Shown here piece by piece: positions 1 to 7,107 of a stretch of DNA of 64,000 nucleotides. The DNA is from Escherichia coli (GTDB lineage Bacteria > Pseudomonadota > Gammaproteobacteria > Enterobacterales > Enterobacteriaceae). Below the pieces are notes generated by a model. The model worked only from the letters and a program-made list of their open reading frames with translations, was not told the DNA's origin and did no database searches. Numbering within the stretch: position 1 is the stretch's first letter; each line of letters begins with the position of its first letter. The stretch is taken from assembly GCF_013315695.1 (NCBI RefSeq), contig NZ_CP054353.1, one strand, 5' to 3'. A program made the position numbers and the translations under genes.

Positions 1-11
1 GAATCCCCCCG

Positions 12-1067
12 TTAACCAATTTTGACGGTAACAAATTTGCGAATATCTGCCGGAACCGGCTGCGGTGCGCTGTGCGTCTGCACGTACTCAATCGCCGGAT
101 CGCCGTCCTCAATCCAGTTTTTCGGGTAAAACATGTTTTGCGTTGCGCCCGTTCTTACCGCTTCCTGTTCCAGGATCGCACCATAGGCCACCAGCCCTTT
201 ATTGTTGGTGTTGCCCAGGACCAGCAAATCAGGCTCAAGGAAATATTTTTCTGTGCCGTCGCTGTCAGTGTATTTGCCGGAATAGACGATAAGGGCCAGA
301 TCACCAAGATAGCCTTTAAAGCTCACCACTTCGCCCAGGTTTTTACATGCCAGCTCTGCGGCGGATTCTGAACCACGGGAGAGATCGTACAGTTCACGGA
401 ATTTTTTAAAGCTGCGTAACATGCGCCATACATCAACGCCCATAATCATGACGTTTGCGGGGCAACCTGCCTGATCTGCGTATAGCTCAATGTCATAGAT
501 TGGGTCGTGTATGTCTTTGTCCTGCTCTGACCATTTTTTACCGTCGGCCTGCTCTATGATGTTTTTTTCCGGTATCTTCCAGTCGATTTCATAGCGCTCT
601 ATGCCTTCGCCCTCAATGATGTTTTTTCCGGTCGTTACCGCATTTACCGCCAGCCATTCCACGCGCGCTTTAATGGCGTTTATCTGGCGGCGCATGTTGC
701 CAGTAATCAGGCGCATACGGCGGTAGGTAGGGTCGTTAAGCTGTGCTGGATCTTCTCCAGCCATGCGCATTATTGTTTTTAATGGATCGATTTCGTGTTT
801 TGGCTTCATGTAGCCAGGGCGAATAATGCTTGTTTCGTACCCTTTATCGCGCTGAACCTGGCTACCCACCATAGGCGAACAAAACGCCGACATAGTGACT
901 TCTTCAATATCCAGGTTATCTAACATGATGTCCTGTGTGTTGAATGTCGCCACGTTCGGGAAAAACAGCGCGGTAAACAGCGGACTGAATTTAAATTCCG
1001 CAATATCCTCGCGATTCAGGTACGCAAAAAGCTGGTTAGTGTTAAGTGCTATTGCTTTTACTGTCAT
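12..1067 (-). CDS. Major capsid protein, lambda gpE-like family
   Basis: A 351-aa ORF whose length and sequence character fit the phage major capsid protein E family. Its start overlaps the stop of the upstream small ORF, and it lies in a separately promoted operon. Confidence 0.75.
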   Translation of the reverse strand: MTVKAIALNTNQLFAYLNREDIAEFKFSPLFTALFFPNVATFNTQDIMLDNLDIEEVTMSAFCSPMVGSQVQRDKGYETSIIRPGYMKPKHEIDPLKTIMRMAGEDPAQLNDPTYRRMRLITGNMRRQINAIKARVEWLAVNAVTTGKNIIEGEGIERYEIDWKIPEKNIIEQADGKKWSEQDKDIHDPIYDIELYADQAGCPANVMIMGVDVWRMLRSFKKFRELYDLSRGSESAAELACKNLGEVVSFKGYLGDLALIVYSGKYTDSDGTEKYFLEPDLLVLGNTNNKGLVAYGAILEQEAVRTGATQNMFYPKNWIEDGDPAIEYVQTHSAPQPVPADIRKFVTVKIG

Positions 1068-1273
1068 TATTCACCCCCGTGAACCTGATTCATACCCAGC
1101 GCCGCGCGTAAATAGGCGCGTACCTGCCAGCCTGTTGACGGCTCAACCATCGCCAGCGGATCAAGTCCTGCCGCAATGCCTGCTTTTACGTTCTGCTGGT
1201 GGCGTTCCTTGAGCGCCTTCACGATGTCGGGGCTTATGTACACCGAAACACCGCCTTTTTTCTCTTCAGCCAT
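1067..1273 (-). CDS. Hypothetical 68-aa protein, first gene of the capsid operon
   Basis: An ORF with an AGAGGA Shine-Dalgarno upstream, translationally coupled to the capsid gene. I recognise no family. Confidence 0.5.
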   Translation of the reverse strand: MAEEKKGGVSVYISPDIVKALKERHQQNVKAGIAAGLDPLAMVEPSTGWQVRAYLRAALGMNQVHGGE

Positions 1274-1302
1274 AGTAAGAAATTCCTCTTTGACTTAAAA
1301 AA

Positions 1303-1357
1303 TCATAACTGGATGTTCATCCAGTTATGATTATAATCATGATTGCATTTTGTGCAA
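1303..1357 (-). promoter_or_regulatory. Candidate late-operon promoter (-35 TTGCAC 1352-1357, 16-nt spacer, perfect -10 TATAAT 1330-1335) with a 28-bp palindromic operator (1303-1330)
   Basis: TCATAACTGGATG-tt-CATCCAGTTATGA has perfect 13-bp arms and lies immediately downstream of the -10, over the predicted start site. It overlaps the 14-bp palindrome ATGATTATAATCAT (1327-1340). Confidence 0.45.
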
Positions 1358-1437
1358 TGATATTGAGTTGCGTTGCAAATTATGAAATTATTATCCCGAT
1401 CATGTGTGTCAGTGCACCAAAAAACCTCATATGCAAA

Positions 1438-1476
1438 AGCCCGATAAGCCACCTCTGACCTTATCGGGCTTTTTTT
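1438..1476. terminator. Rho-independent terminator hairpin (bidirectional appearance)
   Basis: An 11-bp stem AGCCCGATAAG/CTTATCGGGCT with a T-run on the plus side and an A-run on the other side. Confidence 0.55.
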
Positions 1477-1482
1477 GGGCGC

Positions 1483-1506
1483 AAAAAAGCCGGATTGCTC
1501 CGGCTG
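1483..1506 (-). terminator. Rho-independent terminator after the PerC-like gene
   Basis: On the minus strand the stem AGCCGGA/TCCGGCT is followed by TTTTTT, about 20 nt after the stop at 1528. Confidence 0.6.
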
Positions 1507-1527
1507 TGTGGTGTGGTTCTGGTATTC

Positions 1528-1776
1528 CTACTCTGCTAATTTGCTCAGCCCCATGTCTGCGTAAGTGCGATTTACTGCATTTCTCAGGTCTGCATAGTTC
1601 TCCGTTGGCGGCTCCGGTGGCCTCTGTGCCTTCCTGGAACATTCCAGCCGTCGCATCGTGATGTGATGCCGTTCCTTGTCTGTCTCCACCAGCATCATGA
1701 CTTCACCCCATCGCGCCGCCGCCCTCCGGTAAAATCCTTTCGCTTCGAGTTCTTCCGCTATGCGGTCATGTACCAT
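1528..1776 (-). CDS. PerC-family transcriptional activator-like protein (82 aa from internal Met)
   Basis: The N-terminus MVHDRIAEELEAKGFYRRAAARWGEVM matches the LE-KG-YRRAA-RW signature I associate with PerC/Pch proteins. The longer track ORF overlaps ssb and is unlikely to be real. Confidence 0.5.
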   Translation of the reverse strand: MVHDRIAEELEAKGFYRRAAARWGEVMMLVETDKERHHITMRRLECSRKAQRPPEPPTENYADLRNAVNRTYADMGLSKLAE

Positions 1777-1786
1777 CGTCACCCCC

Positions 1787-2197
1787 TCAGAACGGAATAT
1801 CATCACCGTAAGGGTCATCGCCTCCCGCTGGTGGCTGATTACCCTGTGCGCCTGTGGTTTTGCGTCTGTTCCCGCCAGGACGTGCCGCACGGGCACTGAT
1901 TACGCTGTCTGCAATAACCTGATAACCCTGACGCGTCTCCCCGTTCTGTCCGGTCCACTGGCTTACCTGCATCGTGCCGGATACGCTGGCAACGTCGCCT
2001 TTTTGATGTTTAGCCAGGAAGTCGGCCTGCTTACCAAATGCGATGACCGATAGCCATAACGTCGCCTGTCCGTCCTGTGCCTGACTGCATGGCAGTGATA
2101 CCGCCATACGCGCCAGCGTCATCGGTGTGCCCTTGCTGGTCTGTTTTACCTGCGGGTCGTCCACCAGCCGACCGTAAGCCGCTATCTGTGCTGTCAT
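1787..2197 (-). CDS. ssb: Single-stranded DNA-binding protein
   Basis: A 136-aa protein with an OB-fold-like N-terminus, a Gly/Pro-rich linker and the canonical acidic C-terminal tip DDIPF. Confidence 0.85.
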   Translation of the reverse strand: MTAQIAAYGRLVDDPQVKQTSKGTPMTLARMAVSLPCSQAQDGQATLWLSVIAFGKQADFLAKHQKGDVASVSGTMQVSQWTGQNGETRQGYQVIADSVISARAARPGGNRRKTTGAQGNQPPAGGDDPYGDDIPF

Positions 2198-2457
2198 GAT
2201 TCCACCTCTCCGGTTTTAACGTTGATGGTTGTTACCTGTTCCGCTTCGGCAATCTCCCGTTCTGTCAGCGTGGCAAAGTTTGCCGCCGCCGTGGTCATGA
2301 ATGCGCTTATCAGGTCGGGATGTTCCTTCGCGTATCCTTCCCGCGTGTGGCGGTCTATCGTTCTGATTGCCACCTTTAAGGTGTGCTCAGTCATGTCTAA
2401 CGCTTTATATTTTGGCTCTGTTCTGTCTCTGCGTGTTCTGGTCATTTGCCACCTCAA
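2194..2457 (-). CDS. Hypothetical 87-aa protein
   Basis: An ORF whose stop overlaps the ssb start (ATGA coupling), immediately downstream of the origin region. Confidence 0.45.
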   Translation of the reverse strand: MRWQMTRTRRDRTEPKYKALDMTEHTLKVAIRTIDRHTREGYAKEHPDLISAFMTTAAANFATLTEREIAEAEQVTTINVKTGEVES

Positions 2458-2477
2458 TTTATATATATAGAAACATG

Positions 2478-2793
2478 TGCGGGTTATGCGGGTTATTGGG
2501 TTATCTTAGCGTGCTAACCATTTTTTATCCTTTTATATCAGTATTTTGCAAAACACCCTGTTTATTATTTGCCCACCACGTAACCCGCAAAACGCTCAAA
2601 ATAACCCGCAAACGGGGTTTTTTCTGCGGGTTACGCATGACTGTCCGGTGTTACTTCAGTTATTCGCCTGCGGGTTATAATCGTGCTTTTGCGGGTTATA
2701 AATGCCCTTTTGCGGGTTACGTGCGGGTTATTGGTTTCCTTTATATTCATGCACTTAATACACTTATACACAGGATAACCCGCATAACCCGCA
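2478..2793. repeat. Replication-origin iteron array: 11 copies of TGCGGGTTA(T/C) in both orientations, with flanking AT-rich tracts
   Basis: Plus-orientation copies start at 2478, 2488, 2625, 2669, 2690, 2711 and 2722. Complement-orientation copies are at 2581, 2601, 2775 and 2785. AT-rich stretches lie at 2455-2475 and 2521-2570, directly downstream of the primase/helicase gene. Confidence 0.7.
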
Positions 2794-2815
2794 ATTTTTT
2801 TCCTCACACAGGGGA

Positions 2816-4954
2816 TTAATCTTCATCATCAGGCTGGAACATCAGCACGTAAAAAACATGCTGCTTACCCCCAATCTTGCCCAGCGCCTTTTTTTTGTAT
2901 CGGCGATCGCTTCCCTTCTCCAGCATTCCGGCAGCATCCAGGGCACGCGCAAAATGCGCCGGATTAAATCCCTTCGCTATCTCACTCTCAAACACGTGCG
3001 GGAACGTGTAATAGCGCATCTCGTCATCTTCGTTGCGAATGCTCCCTTTTCTGTATCCGGCAAGCTCTTTAATCGGTAAATCACGCTCATCTGTATTGGG
3101 GTACGGAAGGTAGCGGCTAAACCCAAACGACGACAAAAACGCCTCAGCCTGTTCAACCATCTGTTTAAATTCCCTGTTACCCGTGCCGAACTCCTTCACC
3201 CAGGCATTAAAGTTATGCTGTATCGCGTCGCGGCATTCCTGCACGACCCAGCCAGTTACATGACCGGAAAGCACAAGCGCGGCCTCCAGTATGGCGAAAC
3301 GTTCACCCACGCGGTGGACCTGCTCGCCGTAGCTCTCCGGTATCAGGTTGCGCCACCGTTCGCGGCATTCCCTTACCGTATCCTTTGCCTCCTGCTGGTG
3401 GCCTGCCAGCCATTTAACCCACTCACGACCCGCCGCCCCGTGATTTGCTGTCCAGGCATCCTTTAACGCGTCAGCATGTTCCTTACCGTTGCTGTATTCG
3501 TGAAATTTCGTGGCTTTTTCCATCGGAACGTTAAGCAGTCGGACAAGCTGCCCCGCCTTAACTTTTATCCCCTCACTTTTGAGGAATGTCTCAACGTCCA
3601 TTTCTCCGGTGCTGATTGCCACCGTTCGCCAGTGTTTGATCTCCCTGTTGCCGCCATCCTTCGCCCCCTGCAATTTCCCTGAACCGTTAAACAGCGTATA
3701 AGCAGACGTTGACACTTCCCGCGCATTTCCGGCCTGGCCTATCTCATCCAGTGGTAAAAGCCCGTCATTATGGGCCTCGGCCTCATTGGCAATACCTAAC
3801 GCCGTGCCGTACCAGGTCAGCCGCTGCGCGTCCGGCTCTCCCCATAAACTTGATGCGATGTTCTGCGTGGTGGTCTTACCTGCCGATGACTGTTCGAAAA
3901 GATGCACCCCGAAGCCGTCAGCACCCACAAGGCCAATTAAAGGCGCTGCCAGTGACGTTGCCACACCCAGCATCATTGAGGCATTACCGCCAGCCAGCCG
4001 CGCCACACTCTCGCGCCAGCCCTCCGCCGTACCCGCCACGGAATAACCGTTAATCGCGGCGCTTTTTCCGGTAAACAGGATCGGTTTTTCAGAATCACCA
4101 ATGATCGAACCGTCCGGCATGATGTACGCGCCAAAATGCCAGCCCGTTGTTGTGCTTAACTGCCATTCCTCATGGCTTCCGCTTAACTGCATCCAGTCCG
4201 CCAGGATTGCCCTGTATTTGCCGTTGGTTGTCACGTTCAGCCCGTGATCTTTAAGTAACCGCCAGCCGTCACGGTCGCCGATACCACCACACGGGATCGC
4301 CATTGTGATGACTTCATGATTTGCTAATTTTTTCCAGCGCATGACGCGGTAATGCTCTTTACCGATCGTCCCCGTTCCCAGTAGTTCAAGCGGAGAACAT
4401 AACCACGTCTCAGGCCGGATAATTTCGCCTGACTGCTTATCCACTTTGGGCGTTACCCAGAAAACACCATCGGCGCGACTTTCAACGCGTGGCTTTAATT
4501 CGTCATCGCTATGGCTTCCGGTATCTTTTTTCTTTACCGGAAACTCAATAACCAGACCATCAGAAAGATTCTGCCGCTCACGGGCCAGATATTCGCGCCA
4601 GTTCTCCACCTCCTGACCGTGCATTCCATCAGGGTAAAAATTTGCATCCTGTACGCCTGCCGCCGCCAGCTTCTGACCAATCGCCTTGATCATTACTGGC
4701 TCAAGATGTCCGGCCCTGAATATGCGTACTGATTTTCGGCCTTCCGGCACAATTTGCAGCTTATCCAGTTCGGCAAGTTGTTGCTCTCCAAGCCAGACAG
4801 GAGGCACGTTATCGCCAGCCAGTCGCCCGTCCTGTTCCTGCCACTGTTTCGCATGTGCCCAGGCATCACTACCCGCAAAAATGATGACTTCCGTCATTTT
4901 GTCACGTGGCTGGTGTTTTAAATTTGGCGCTTTTTTCATTTCTGCTCTCTCCAC
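2816..4954 (-). CDS. Satellite replication protein: primase/helicase (TOPRIM-like N-terminus plus DUF927-type P-loop domain)
   Basis: A 712-aa ORF with Walker A SSAGKTTT and a Walker B-like LLPLDEIG. It has the size and position typical of P4-alpha/PICI Pri-Rep proteins. Confidence 0.75.
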   Translation of the reverse strand: MERAEMKKAPNLKHQPRDKMTEVIIFAGSDAWAHAKQWQEQDGRLAGDNVPPVWLGEQQLAELDKLQIVPEGRKSVRIFRAGHLEPVMIKAIGQKLAAAGVQDANFYPDGMHGQEVENWREYLARERQNLSDGLVIEFPVKKKDTGSHSDDELKPRVESRADGVFWVTPKVDKQSGEIIRPETWLCSPLELLGTGTIGKEHYRVMRWKKLANHEVITMAIPCGGIGDRDGWRLLKDHGLNVTTNGKYRAILADWMQLSGSHEEWQLSTTTGWHFGAYIMPDGSIIGDSEKPILFTGKSAAINGYSVAGTAEGWRESVARLAGGNASMMLGVATSLAAPLIGLVGADGFGVHLFEQSSAGKTTTQNIASSLWGEPDAQRLTWYGTALGIANEAEAHNDGLLPLDEIGQAGNAREVSTSAYTLFNGSGKLQGAKDGGNREIKHWRTVAISTGEMDVETFLKSEGIKVKAGQLVRLLNVPMEKATKFHEYSNGKEHADALKDAWTANHGAAGREWVKWLAGHQQEAKDTVRECRERWRNLIPESYGEQVHRVGERFAILEAALVLSGHVTGWVVQECRDAIQHNFNAWVKEFGTGNREFKQMVEQAEAFLSSFGFSRYLPYPNTDERDLPIKELAGYRKGSIRNEDDEMRYYTFPHVFESEIAKGFNPAHFARALDAAGMLEKGSDRRYKKKALGKIGGKQHVFYVLMFQPDDED

Positions 4955-5235
4955 GCGGCAATCATGTTTTTCAGTTCCTGTAGTTTTTTATCCACATCCA
5001 CACGTGACACATGGTTATTTCTGGAAGTCGGGATTTCCCGCCTGAATCTGCTAATAAAGATCTCCACGTTCAGCGAACTATGAAATGAATAGCCATCACG
5101 AATAAAATACACACGGTCAAACATCAGTTCTTTTACCGTTACTCTGTTGCCGTTCTTATCCAGATAAATAGCGCCGGGGATAATTTTGGGGTGTGCATAA
5201 CCGCTGGCAGTCAAGCCAGATAAATATGTTCTCAT
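4936..5235 (-). CDS. Hypothetical 99-aa protein
   Basis: An ORF in the same operon whose end overlaps the primase start. No family recognised. Confidence 0.5.
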   Translation of the reverse strand: MRTYLSGLTASGYAHPKIIPGAIYLDKNGNRVTVKELMFDRVYFIRDGYSFHSSLNVEIFISRFRREIPTSRNNHVSRVDVDKKLQELKNMIAAWREQK

Positions 5236-5241
5236 GATTAT

Positions 5242-5562
5242 TTATCCCCGATTTGAATCAGTATTCGCTTTCTTTATAGCATTTAATGCATTTGTGGCAT
5301 TTTCAATGGTGCACCGTAACGAAATATCAAACTGCCCAAGCATTGCCAGTAACAAACCGATATTACCCATATCAATGCGCATGGCCTTTTCGTCATATTC
5401 CTCATTTTCTGACGCATACCACATCAGGCTACCAATTGACGCAATACCCATTGATATATTGTCAGTAGCCCCATCCGCAGCGGAATAAACTTTTTTAGCA
5501 ATATCATGCTCACAGTTAAAATGCGGATTAATCAGGTACTGGTAATTGGTCATGTCAGGCAT
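5242..5562 (-). CDS. Hypothetical 106-aa protein
   Basis: An ORF tightly packed between its neighbours. No family recognised. Confidence 0.5.
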   Translation of the reverse strand: MPDMTNYQYLINPHFNCEHDIAKKVYSAADGATDNISMGIASIGSLMWYASENEEYDEKAMRIDMGNIGLLLAMLGQFDISLRCTIENATNALNAIKKANTDSNRG

Positions 5563-5758
5563 GGCACACCCCCTGACGAATACGGGCGGCGAATACCATC
5601 ACGCAGCCAGCCGGGGATTGCTGGCGTGCTTCCTGTTCGCTGCTGGCCTCAATGGTAATCACGCGCGGTTGTGCCGTGCTCAGGGCGATAAAACGCCAGA
5701 TGTATTTATTCAGGTTGTGCGAGTCCCGCCCTTGCGGGTGTGTGGTATGATTTAACAT
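5555..5758 (-). CDS. Small 67-aa protein, possibly Icd-like (cell-division inhibitor family often annotated in P4-like islands)
   Basis: Only the C-terminal 67 codons (from the ATG at 5758) of the 335-aa track ORF are plausible. The pattern IWRF..A..(n)EQEAR..(n)VFAARI resembles Icd-like proteins, but I assign this from memory only. Confidence 0.35.
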   Translation of the reverse strand: MLNHTTHPQGRDSHNLNKYIWRFIALSTAQPRVITIEASSEQEARQQSPAGCVMVFAARIRQGVCHA

Positions 5759-5839
5759 AGCTACCTCGATACTGTTGCTATCGTTGGTTGTTAGACGCCC
5801 TGCATGTGTTGCGAGCACTGCGGGGCGTTGCTCTTTCAG

Positions 5840-5885
5840 GTGTATTTCACCTTTGCTTTTTAATTTACTCACTGGTGAAATACAC
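5840..5885. promoter_or_regulatory. 12-bp perfect inverted repeat GTGTATTTCACC / GGTGAAATACAC separated by 22 bp, in the divergent control region
   Basis: Seen directly in the sequence. It lies between the leftward early operon (start 5758) and the rightward RHH gene (start 5952). Confidence 0.4.
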
Positions 5886-5951
5886 TTCAAGCCTTTTTTT
5901 ATCATTTTTTTTGCGTATACTGACATACACCAATTTTTAGGAGATCCAGAA

Positions 5952-6131
5952 ATGGCAACTGGTGCAAAGAACGCAAAATCACAAATGACAACTGTCAGAA
6001 TCCCACATGAAGTAATGGATGATATTGAGCAACTTAAAGAACCTGGCGAAAGTACCGCTGGTTTTTTAGTTACTGCCGCAAAAGGCGAGATCAAACGCCG
6101 CCAGCGCCGCAAGGCCAAAGAATCAGAATAA
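5952..6131 (+). CDS. Ribbon-helix-helix (CopG/Arc-like) small DNA-binding protein, 59 aa
   Basis: An AGGAG Shine-Dalgarno lies upstream. TTVRIPHEVMDDIEQL fits the RHH beta-strand plus helix pattern, and the tail is basic. Confidence 0.45.
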   Translation: MATGAKNAKSQMTTVRIPHEVMDDIEQLKEPGESTAGFLVTAAKGEIKRRQRRKAKESE

Positions 6132-6188
6132 TCACTATCAGCGCCGTGGCGTGAGGTACTCCGGCGCATTGCTTTACAGGTCAGTACT

Positions 6189-6398
6189 ATGAGCAAAAAA
6201 CACCGATCAGCAGATGAGATTTTTGCAGAACAACGAAGATTGCTTTTGCAAAGTATCATTTCACGCCAGCAAGAGAAGGCGCGAGCTAAACAAATGCCAC
6301 CAAATACAGAACCAGCGCCTACAAGATTTGCGCTTGATGATTTTCTCGATAAACACCCCAGGGTAATGAAAGCAAACAAAAACCGCCCACCAGCCTGA
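6189..6398 (+). CDS. Hypothetical 69-aa basic protein
   Basis: An ORF following the RHH gene on the same strand, ended by the terminator at 6442-6469. Confidence 0.4.
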   Translation: MSKKHRSADEIFAEQRRLLLQSIISRQQEKARAKQMPPNTEPAPTRFALDDFLDKHPRVMKANKNRPPA

Positions 6399-6441
6399 TA
6401 GCGGCTATCATCCCCGTGCTTATGTTTAGTGTTTCCAAACT

Positions 6442-6469
6442 GGCGACCTCCCAAGGTCGCCTTTTTTTT
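6442..6469 (+). terminator. Rho-independent terminator
   Basis: The stem GGCGACC/GGTCGCC is followed by T8. Confidence 0.65.
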
Positions 6470-6488
6470 ATGTGCCATTGTCACCACC

Positions 6489-6698
6489 TCAAGCGGCCTT
6501 GCCTGAATTAATGCGTTCGCGGTTTTTGACCCACGCCACAACCTCAGACTTAACCCAGCCAACAGAACGACCGCCGAGACTGATACGGGAGGGGAAGCGG
6601 CCCTGCTTTTCCATCTCGTAACGAGTTGTGCGGCAAACGCCTGTTAGCTCTCTGCATTCTTTTTCGCGGATTACGCGATCTTCATTTATTTCACGCAT
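6489..6698 (-). CDS. alpA: AlpA-family (MerR-like HTH) prophage/satellite regulator, 69 aa
   Basis: MREINEDRVIREKECRELTGVCRTTRYEMEKQGRFP has the typical AlpA HTH. It lies next to the integrase on the same strand. Confidence 0.75.
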   Translation of the reverse strand: MREINEDRVIREKECRELTGVCRTTRYEMEKQGRFPSRISLGGRSVGWVKSEVVAWVKNRERINSGKAA

Positions 6699-7107
6699 AC
6701 AAAAACCTACATAAAAATTACGTATATAAACTTTTCTCTTAGCTGTAGATATATGAGATCGGATATTACTTAGATTCTTTTTCACCTCTTAAATTAAAAA
6801 CACAACCATGCTAAAGGCTTTGTTCGCTAAGGTTCGTAGAAGCTCGTTAGTGTTTAAAATCGTGTCACGAGTTTTTAAGCGACGCAACAAAAAATGTCGT
6901 TATTTGGCATGACACCTGAATTACCTCATTAAAAACAAATAGATAAACCATCAGGTGTTGGAACAATCAAGAAACAGAGAATAAGAACTAAGAAGAAGAC
7001 ATTTCAAATTTTTTCAATACTTGACACATATAAATCGTCGATATTTGCCGATATTCGACGATTTATTTTAGAGGGCCATTTTTCGCAAGAAAAACAGCCG
7101 TAATTTG

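Follow-up and report, generated by a model that had tools for sequence, protein, structure and literature searches.

A two-module repeat field 3' of a DUF927 rep gene as the probable replication origin of an Escherichia coli phage-inducible chromosomal island

What is the function of a dense field of short repeats located directly downstream from a helicase gene in a phage satellite of Escherichia coli? The question is raised by a 64,000-nucleotide (nt) stretch of contig NZ_CP054353.1 (RefSeq assembly GCF_013315695.1), referred to herein as the window. In it, a preliminary description made from the letters alone had noticed 11 copies of a 9–10-bp motif next to a gene that it called primase/helicase, and had proposed that they mark the replication origin of a satellite. 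Our analysis makes it highly probable that the field serves a phage-inducible chromosomal island (PICI) as its replication origin, cognate to the replication protein (Rep) encoded beside it, and that the motif, TGCGGGTTAY, represents putative iterons for the C-terminal domain of this protein. Origins of this kind, positioned 3' of the gene for a self-loading Rep, are already known from PICIs and from the Staphylococcus aureus pathogenicity islands (SaPIs).

The number of copies was borne out by exact matching. Within 316 bp (window 2478–2793), TGCGGGTTAY occurs 11 times without mismatch, with seven copies on the + strand (2478, 2487, 2625, 2669, 2690, 2711, and 2722) and four on the − strand (2580, 2601, 2775, and 2784). 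The whole window contains 12 exact matches, and 100 dinucleotide-preserving shuffles of it, used to define the chance level, averaged 0.20 matches, with no shuffle exceeding 2; the cluster is therefore not a product of chance. A degenerate twelfth site in the field, ATTGGGTTAT at 2495–2504, is an exact copy in relatives. The direct pairs that had been pointed out are real, and 2711/2722 (+ strand) is correctly placed, but the pairs given as 2478/2488 and 2775/2785 are in fact 2478/2487 and 2775/2784, because neighboring copies share a T and are thus spaced 9 bp. The field starts 22 nt past the rep stop codon (2816–2818), so that its position immediately 3' of the minus-strand open reading frame 2816–4954 had been correctly described. 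The remaining exact match in the window is an isolated TGCGGGTTAT on the − strand (62455–62464), which is chromosomal and far outside the island; together with six further copies of the 8-mer core GCGGGTTA, scattered unclustered across the window, it is read as chance.

The sites are organized as two modules of six, one proximal and one distal to rep, and not as a single array (Table 1). Read in the orientation of rep, the proximal module begins with 2784 and 2775, which are 9 bp apart, and continues after a 43-bp spacer with the inverted sites 2722, 2711, 2690, and 2669, at steps of 11, 21, and 21 bp. The distal module consists of the site at 2625, the opposed sites 2601 and 2580 (21 bp apart), a 75-bp AT-rich spacer (2505–2579), and, beyond it, the degenerate site followed by the exact copies 2487 and 2478, at steps of 8–9 bp. 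Within each module, the sites flanking the AT-rich spacer point towards each other, and, with spacings of 9, 11, and 21 bp, most sites fall on the same helical face. The AT-rich tracts said to be interspersed among the repeats are likewise real, as the least stable 30-mers of the region coincide exactly with the two spacers and the (TA)5 tract, all of them in the lowest 0.3–0.4% of the window, and those at 2520–2549 and 2740–2769 each sit between convergent sets of repeats. The TT(TA)5 tract is conserved along with the distal module, being kept in the related loci L002, L036, L007, and L037. Six sites per module is also the number of C-terminal domains in a hexamer, a match that we report as an observation and not as a rule.

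A lone DnaA-box-like match, TTATACACA, is located at 2764, inside the proximal spacer. It is kept only within the group of loci with GCGGGTTA repeats and is not conserved in the other repeat classes, and a role of DnaA as a general feature of these fields was therefore rejected. Scans of the window with Rfam and for tRNA genes found nothing.

Table 1. Positions in the window of the repeat field, of the adjoining genes, and of the segment that is exchanged between islands (Rep residues are numbered throughout in the 712-aa frame)
Feature	Position	Strand	Remarks
Rep-proximal origin module (putative)	2669..2793	.	Beside rep in all relatives having a repeat field
AT-rich spacer of the proximal module, candidate melting site	2732..2774	.	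30-mer 2740–2769 in the least stable 0.4%
Rep-distal module	2478..2634	.	Site pattern matches the P4 crr unit
TT(TA)5 tract, outer edge of the distal module	2458..2469	.	30-mer 2450–2479 in the least stable 0.4%
rep, predicted DUF927 initiator-helicase	2816..4939	-	707 aa from ATG 4939
Coding sequence of Rep residues 601–712, putative repeat-recognizing C-terminal domain	2819..3154	-	Identity follows the repeat class
Exchangeable replicon cassette	2394..4569	-	Rep ~129–712, whole field, first 17 codons of the 83-aa gene
Downstream 83-aa gene, phrog_1231, putative protein	2194..2445	-	PHROG match E=5e-53
ssb	2197..1787	-	
Lambda-E-type major capsid gene	1067..12	-	
DUF4222 gene	5235..4936	-	
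Tyrosine integrase	8346..7108	-	Followed by small regulatory genes

The protein encoded beside the field matches the Pfam family DUF927 (E=5.5e-48). Its open frame reaches a GTG at 4954, giving 712 aa, and the relatives in RefSeq are annotated with 707 aa. In a sequence search of the PDB, Rep matched 8tch (E=1e-13), annotated as the SaPIbov1 initiation-of-replication protein with helicase activity, and also 5dgk, the active helicase Cch of the staphylococcal cassette chromosome mec (SCCmec). These two entries were also the only significant Foldseek matches (E ~3e-10 to 4e-10) of the full-length AlphaFold model, which is of moderate quality, with a mean predicted local distance difference test (pLDDT) score of 62, and the identity to SaPIbov1 Rep in the fold alignment is low (13–15%). 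Sequence and modeled fold thus support the prediction that Rep is a self-loading hexameric initiator-helicase of the SaPI-Rep/Cch type. The helicase half of the earlier name for this gene stands, but the label primase is unsupported, since the N-terminal 160 residues of Rep match no Pfam family; homologs of about 900 residues, such as that of L013, carry Zn_Ribbon_Prim and Toprim_3 at the N-terminus. Residues 1–128 (window 4570–4954) form a separate, shuffled module of alternating strands and helices with pLDDT of 80–91. The identity of this N-terminal domain is 76% with that of a Rep resembling the alpha protein of the satellite P4 (L007) and 45% with that of a helicase of the RepA family (L006), and it drops to 38% with other DUF927 Reps of the GCGGGTTA class (L003 and L004).

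Comparison of the iterons among related islands had been suggested as a check on the proposal. Homologs of the DUF927 Rep number ~3,500. Relatives were represented by 20 loci from other Enterobacterales genera, whose Reps are 55–75% identical to that of the window, and by nine more found by exact protein look-up. Among the 28 related loci that could be read 3' of rep, which span about a dozen Enterobacterales genera, a dense repeat field was present within ~450 nt of the rep stop codon in 27, with the same layout and with a repeat sequence that varies by class. The steps are conserved to the base pair: beginning ~25 nt past the stop codon, there is a 9-bp step, an AT-rich spacer, and steps of 11, 21, and 21 bp; then follow one plus two sites at 21 bp, a second AT-rich spacer, and two to three sites 9 bp apart. 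In about one third of the loci, the proximal module alone is found beside rep. The field of one E. coli island (L002) is 85% identical and keeps 11 exact GCGGGTTA cores, and three further loci (L003, L004, and L028), which are ~71%-identical islands (the aligned stretch being window 2669–2850) and a Salmonella salamae island, retain all six proximal cores at the same steps in what is the only module beside rep there. In E. coli and Salmonella alignments down to ~71% identity, 85–91% of the columns in the repeats are invariant, versus 46–65% elsewhere; judged from these alignments, selection acts on the repeat sites. The layout is also the same in islands with unrelated packaging modules, whether of the HK97 type, of the lambda-E type, or with a ClpP-capsid fusion.

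Although the layout is constant, the repeat sequences themselves are unrelated between classes, of which there are at least 10 across the loci: GCGGGTTA, GTGGGTTA, ACGGGTTA, TGGGACAA, TGGGATAA, TGAGGCAA, TGAGACAA, CGTGGTTC, GTTGGTTC, and C(C/G)GGTTCA. Some classes, namely GCGGGTTA, GTGGGTTA, and ACGGGTTA, are one base apart. The class follows the C-terminus of Rep. For example, the Rep of an Escherichia albertii island (L008) is 93–95% identical to that of the window over residues 141–600 but only 41% identical over 601–712, and its repeat is TGGGACAA; in L009 and L024, where identity is 72% over the core and 68% over the C-terminal domain, the repeat differs by a single base (GTGGGTTA). When pairs of the 28 Reps with the same repeat were separated from pairs with different repeats, identity over residues 640–705 gave an area under the curve of 0.994 and core identity one of 0.731, the pairs lacking phylogenetic independence. 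Where C-terminal domains are closest among different-repeat pairs, the repeats differ by one or two bases. A blind test was made on five new loci drawn from database homologs: their C-terminal domains were classified and used to predict the repeat before the DNA was read, and all five predictions were correct.

No such agreement was observed, in the loci compared, for the Rep N-terminal domain, the 83-aa protein, the DUF4222 protein, or SSB, and because none of them follows the repeat class they were rejected as specificity factors. The 83-aa protein is 75–83% identical in islands with three repeat types, and it is absent from L003 and L004, which nevertheless keep GCGGGTTA. As judged by sequence comparison, then, the repeat follows only the last ~110 residues of Rep (601–712). 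The suggestion that the iteron would define the replicon specificity group of the satellite agrees well with this co-variation of at least 10 classes, which is a matter of co-variation and not of a binding assay.

Rep and the field also move together. The locus L043 (strain 23CRST038) is the same island at the same site, and is 89–97% identical to window 1–2393 and 4570–9000. In place of 2394–4569, however, it carries a helicase 51% identical to residues 320–771 of P4 alpha, and after this helicase (L043 3311–3597) come nine GGTGAACA repeats, which correspond to the type-1 repeat TGTTCACC of the annotated P4 record. L043 retains the integrase gene int, the alpA-like gene, and perC unchanged; rep and the field have been swapped as one unit. 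In another island, the position of the field is occupied by AAAGTGGG repeats accompanying a RepA-family helicase, and in yet another by GGTAGACA repeats accompanying a different alpha-like protein. Because L043 and these other islands exchange both elements, rep and the field are passed on and altered jointly, as a single cassette, and L043 shows that replicons of the P4 type spread in cassette form among PICIs with no other likeness to P4.

SaPI Reps use a C-terminal winged helix to read 6–12 repeats 3' of rep, and in SaPI origins an AT-rich center is flanked on either side by two or more sites, oppositely oriented; according to the published model, one hexamer would be loaded per side, with binding and melting taking place without ATP or a loader (PMC9371898). 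In Gram-negative PICIs, the origin is described as an AT-rich region located 3' of rep with a set of repeats on either flank, and a rep-ori fragment of EcCICFT073 replicates (Fillol-Salom et al. 2018, PMC6092414). As had been anticipated for the window, its arrangement is that of such origins, with repeats of 9–10 bp, opposed around AT-rich spacers and directly 3' of rep. At the sequence level, the field has each of the features of a SaPI or PICI origin, that is, the position 3' of rep, 6–12 opposed repeats, AT-richness, the type of Rep, and the existence of specificity groups. The origins of SaPIbov1, SaPI1, and SaPI5 resemble it in their location, in their 6–12 short repeats, and in their specificity groups, and SaPI Rep is a homologous self-loading helicase whose C-terminal domain sets specificity, as is predicted here for the window Rep. 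Unlike in SaPIs, the host is Gram-negative, the repeats measure 9–10 bp instead of 5–6 bp, and the sites form two modules of six at fixed steps of 9, 11, and 21 bp; neither a separate pri gene beside the window rep nor a primase domain in its product was seen. EcCICFT073 and the other Gram-negative PICIs are islands of the same type, with the gene order int, alpA, rep, ori, and genes for packaging or interference. The available text of PMC6092414 does not describe two modules, co-variation with the C-terminus, or the split arrangement discussed below, and its text and supplements contain no repeat sequences; nor was this repeat or the two-module layout for DUF927 Reps found in the other text searched. 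A preprint on capsid-forming PICIs (10.1101/2022.09.08.507074) does not discuss the origin. A literature search for the motif returned unrelated primers only.

The satellite phage P4 replicates by means of an initiator helicase that binds the origin through its C-terminal domain. The comparison with P4 ori and crr, which had also been made beforehand, is apt: P4 has two separate cis elements with short repeats of either orientation, its crr directly follows alpha on the 3' side and has a similar site pattern, with 120-bp units of the form < > > ... < < as in the distal module, and some relatives of the window island have their two modules split by 6–8 kb. In addition, the P4-alpha-like cassette of the sister island L043 occupies exactly this position. 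The window differs from P4 in its repeat, which is TGCGGGTTAY (GCGGGTTA) and not the type-1 repeat, and in that its modules are adjacent, while the P4 elements are 4.5 kb apart; BLASTP of P4 alpha against the window Rep detected no similarity. Alpha-type initiators combine a Zn-ribbon and Toprim primase with the alpha helicase, whereas no primase family is matched by the N-terminal 160 residues of the window Rep. Rep shares the DUF927 helicase fold with Cch of SCCmec (5dgk), after whose C-terminal helix-turn-helix domain the family HTH_56 is named, but SCCmec is not a phage satellite. The field does not resemble the origins of iteron plasmids such as pSC101, F, P1, and RK2. Those origins consist of tandem direct repeats of 17–22 bp, read by an initiator of the RepA, pi, or TrfA type, and have conserved DnaA boxes as well as a DNA-unwinding element to one side of the repeats, in contrast to the 9–10-bp repeats in both orientations, the helicase initiator, and the unconserved DnaA box of the window.

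Because the field fits all the sequence-level features of SaPI origins listed above, we infer by analogy that, after induction of the island, Rep hexamers would dock through their C-terminal domains on the opposed repeats flanking a spacer, melt the AT-rich spacer, and then load themselves as helicases, and that the host primase and polymerase would then copy the island. The proximal module would be the core origin, and the distal module would act either as a second loading site or as a cis-acting enhancer similar to P4 crr.

Some points weigh against this reading. Binding by Rep, melting, and initiation are all supposed by analogy with the SaPIs. The only Pfam family that matches the C-terminal domain is HTH_56, and the match to the last ~70 residues of Rep is sub-threshold (23.8 vs. 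26.2 bits); such matches below the cut-off are seen in 8 of 17 C-terminal domains, with a best E of 4.8e-5. AlphaFold models of this part are unusable, with pLDDT below 50 for residues 591–712 and of 42 for the domain alone, and a PDB profile search with the domain returned matches at chance level only. In one DUF927 locus, L034, a repeat field is missing from the 520 nt that follow rep; instead, a 98-aa gene comes directly after rep (L034 3697–4260), and no 7–9-mer is enriched in the 5.2-kb locus. Kinship among the Rep pairs could by itself inflate the co-variation, a confound that is broken by recombinant Reps, in which a core of 95% identity is paired with a C-terminal domain of 32%; the recombinants L008 and L029 agree with the co-variation. 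Finally, L007 has an alpha-like Rep with GGTAGACA repeats, and yet a terminal GCGGGTTA module is present in this island, so that the GCGGGTTA module is not always beside its cognate Rep.

This last case concerns the distal module, for which a different role can be proposed. According to this alternative, which we consider possible but would accept only tentatively, the proximal module by itself is the origin, and the distal module is an auxiliary cis element, either a looping enhancer of the crr type or a copy-number or incompatibility element acting by titration or handcuffing of Rep. About one third of the loci, as mentioned above, do without the distal module beside rep. In L037, L040, and L041, only the proximal module follows the DUF927 rep, and a 3+3 module of cognate GCGGGTTA repeats is found 6.3–8.5 kb away at the end of the island, after terL or beside the chromosomal flank. 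In the orientation of rep, moreover, the pattern of the distal module is that of the 120-bp unit of crr, which is also directly 3' of its helicase gene. On the other hand, the distal module has the full layout of an origin itself, with opposed sites around a very unstable spacer, and may as well be a second loading site as an enhancer.

In ~180 other E. coli genomes, a copy ~80% identical to the distal module is located not beside rep but where the island ends on the far side. Among the loci compared, such copies (homologous to window 2460–2613) are at 870–1030 in L007, 2280–2432 in L037, and 9520–9690 in L038–L041. The terminal segment that contains them, ~750 bp long, is conserved even though the islands are integrated at different sites, and some of its repeats resemble those next to int in the window (8367–8426). 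On the basis of these island-end copies, cognate or orphan, and of the P4 crr pattern, the distal module can be regarded as a discrete, relocatable unit. It may even be that DUF927-Rep satellites have a bipartite origin of two six-site modules, the second of which is movable and found adjacent to the first, at the island end beside attP, or in islands with another Rep, but we judge this generalization rather unlikely. If it were true, an orphan module would open its island to replication or interference in trans by a co-resident DUF927 island, a form of origin piracy or incompatibility, and a second module 6–8 kb away would represent a layout like that of P4 ori and crr that evolved with an unrelated helicase.

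A Rep-cognate origin also accounts for the field better than two functions outside replication. It is very improbable that the repeats are operators of a transcription factor for the downstream operon, which comprises the 83-aa gene, ssb, perC, and the capsid genes. In favor of such operators, the field is directly upstream of the 83-aa gene, and the (TA)5 tract is ~15 nt before the ribosome-binding site of this gene. Nevertheless, a promoter scan of 2100–3100 detected no sigma-70-like promoter on either strand, the repeat class co-varies with the Rep C-terminus and with none of the four other protein segments compared, the field was exchanged jointly with rep in an island that left int, the alpA-like gene, and perC the same, and islands with other downstream genes show an unaltered layout; for these reasons, taken together, an operator array is unlikely. 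Terminator-like hairpins in the same interval are found only on the wrong strand, with none on the strand of rep. Although small-terminase binding sites can be repeat arrays and distal-type modules adjoin terL at the end of some capsid-forming islands, a packaging signal (pac, cos, or small-terminase sites) is the least probable of all, as the same objections apply, with repeats that co-vary with Rep and a layout kept across unrelated packaging modules, and as the field is, in addition, ~4 kb from terS and the island end of the closest relative has different repeats.

All the genes in window 1–8346 are on the minus strand. The closest full relative of the island is that of strain N10, which is ~11 kb long, inserted between clpS and yljB/cspD, with the order int, alpA-like gene, icd-like gene, DUF4222 gene, rep, repeat field, 83-aa gene, ssb, perC, capsid gene, decoration protein gene, and terS. 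Neither a portal gene nor terL was found in the N10 island. The possibility of a capsid-forming PICI of the EcCIEDL933 type was therefore rejected, and on this comparison of gene content the island is a classical Gram-negative PICI, integrated between clpS and yljB/cspD in E. coli. Only its replication module is common to this island and to capsid-forming PICIs, for example those of E110019 and of O157:H7 strains.

Other observations were made on the surroundings of the field. The stop codon of the DUF4222 gene overlaps the ATG of rep (ATGA, window 4936–4939), which suggests translational coupling, and in most islands observed in E. coli and Salmonella, a DUF4222 gene is located ahead of rep, regardless of the Rep family. 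Just past the left edge of the window, at the end of the N10 island (L042 8500–9200), the interval separating clpS from the last gene of the island contains a ~120-bp unit (…CAGCGCAATTTTGCGC…GTTACCGCGCC…) repeated at least three times; these copies bear no relation to the GCGGGTTA repeats and may be packaging or integrase-arm sites. In one case, a capsid-forming PICI with a DUF927 rep is inserted in the terL gene of a prophage (L041 9245–9754), with the terminal repeat module at the junction. Such a helper-embedded configuration has been described (PMC10111431).

The current picture of PICI replication is unchanged by these results, which fit it. What is gained is a predicted origin, and a predicted determinant of Rep specificity in the last ~110 residues of the protein, for a widespread family of satellites in E. 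coli and other Enterobacterales. The 10 or more matched classes of repeat and C-terminal domain would predict which islands can cross-replicate or be incompatible with each other. The matched pairs, including those of classes one base apart, are also material for studying how helicases of the SaPI-Rep/Cch type read DNA, and they could serve as orthogonal satellite replicons. The variant in which the two modules are split, as in P4, is worth following up.

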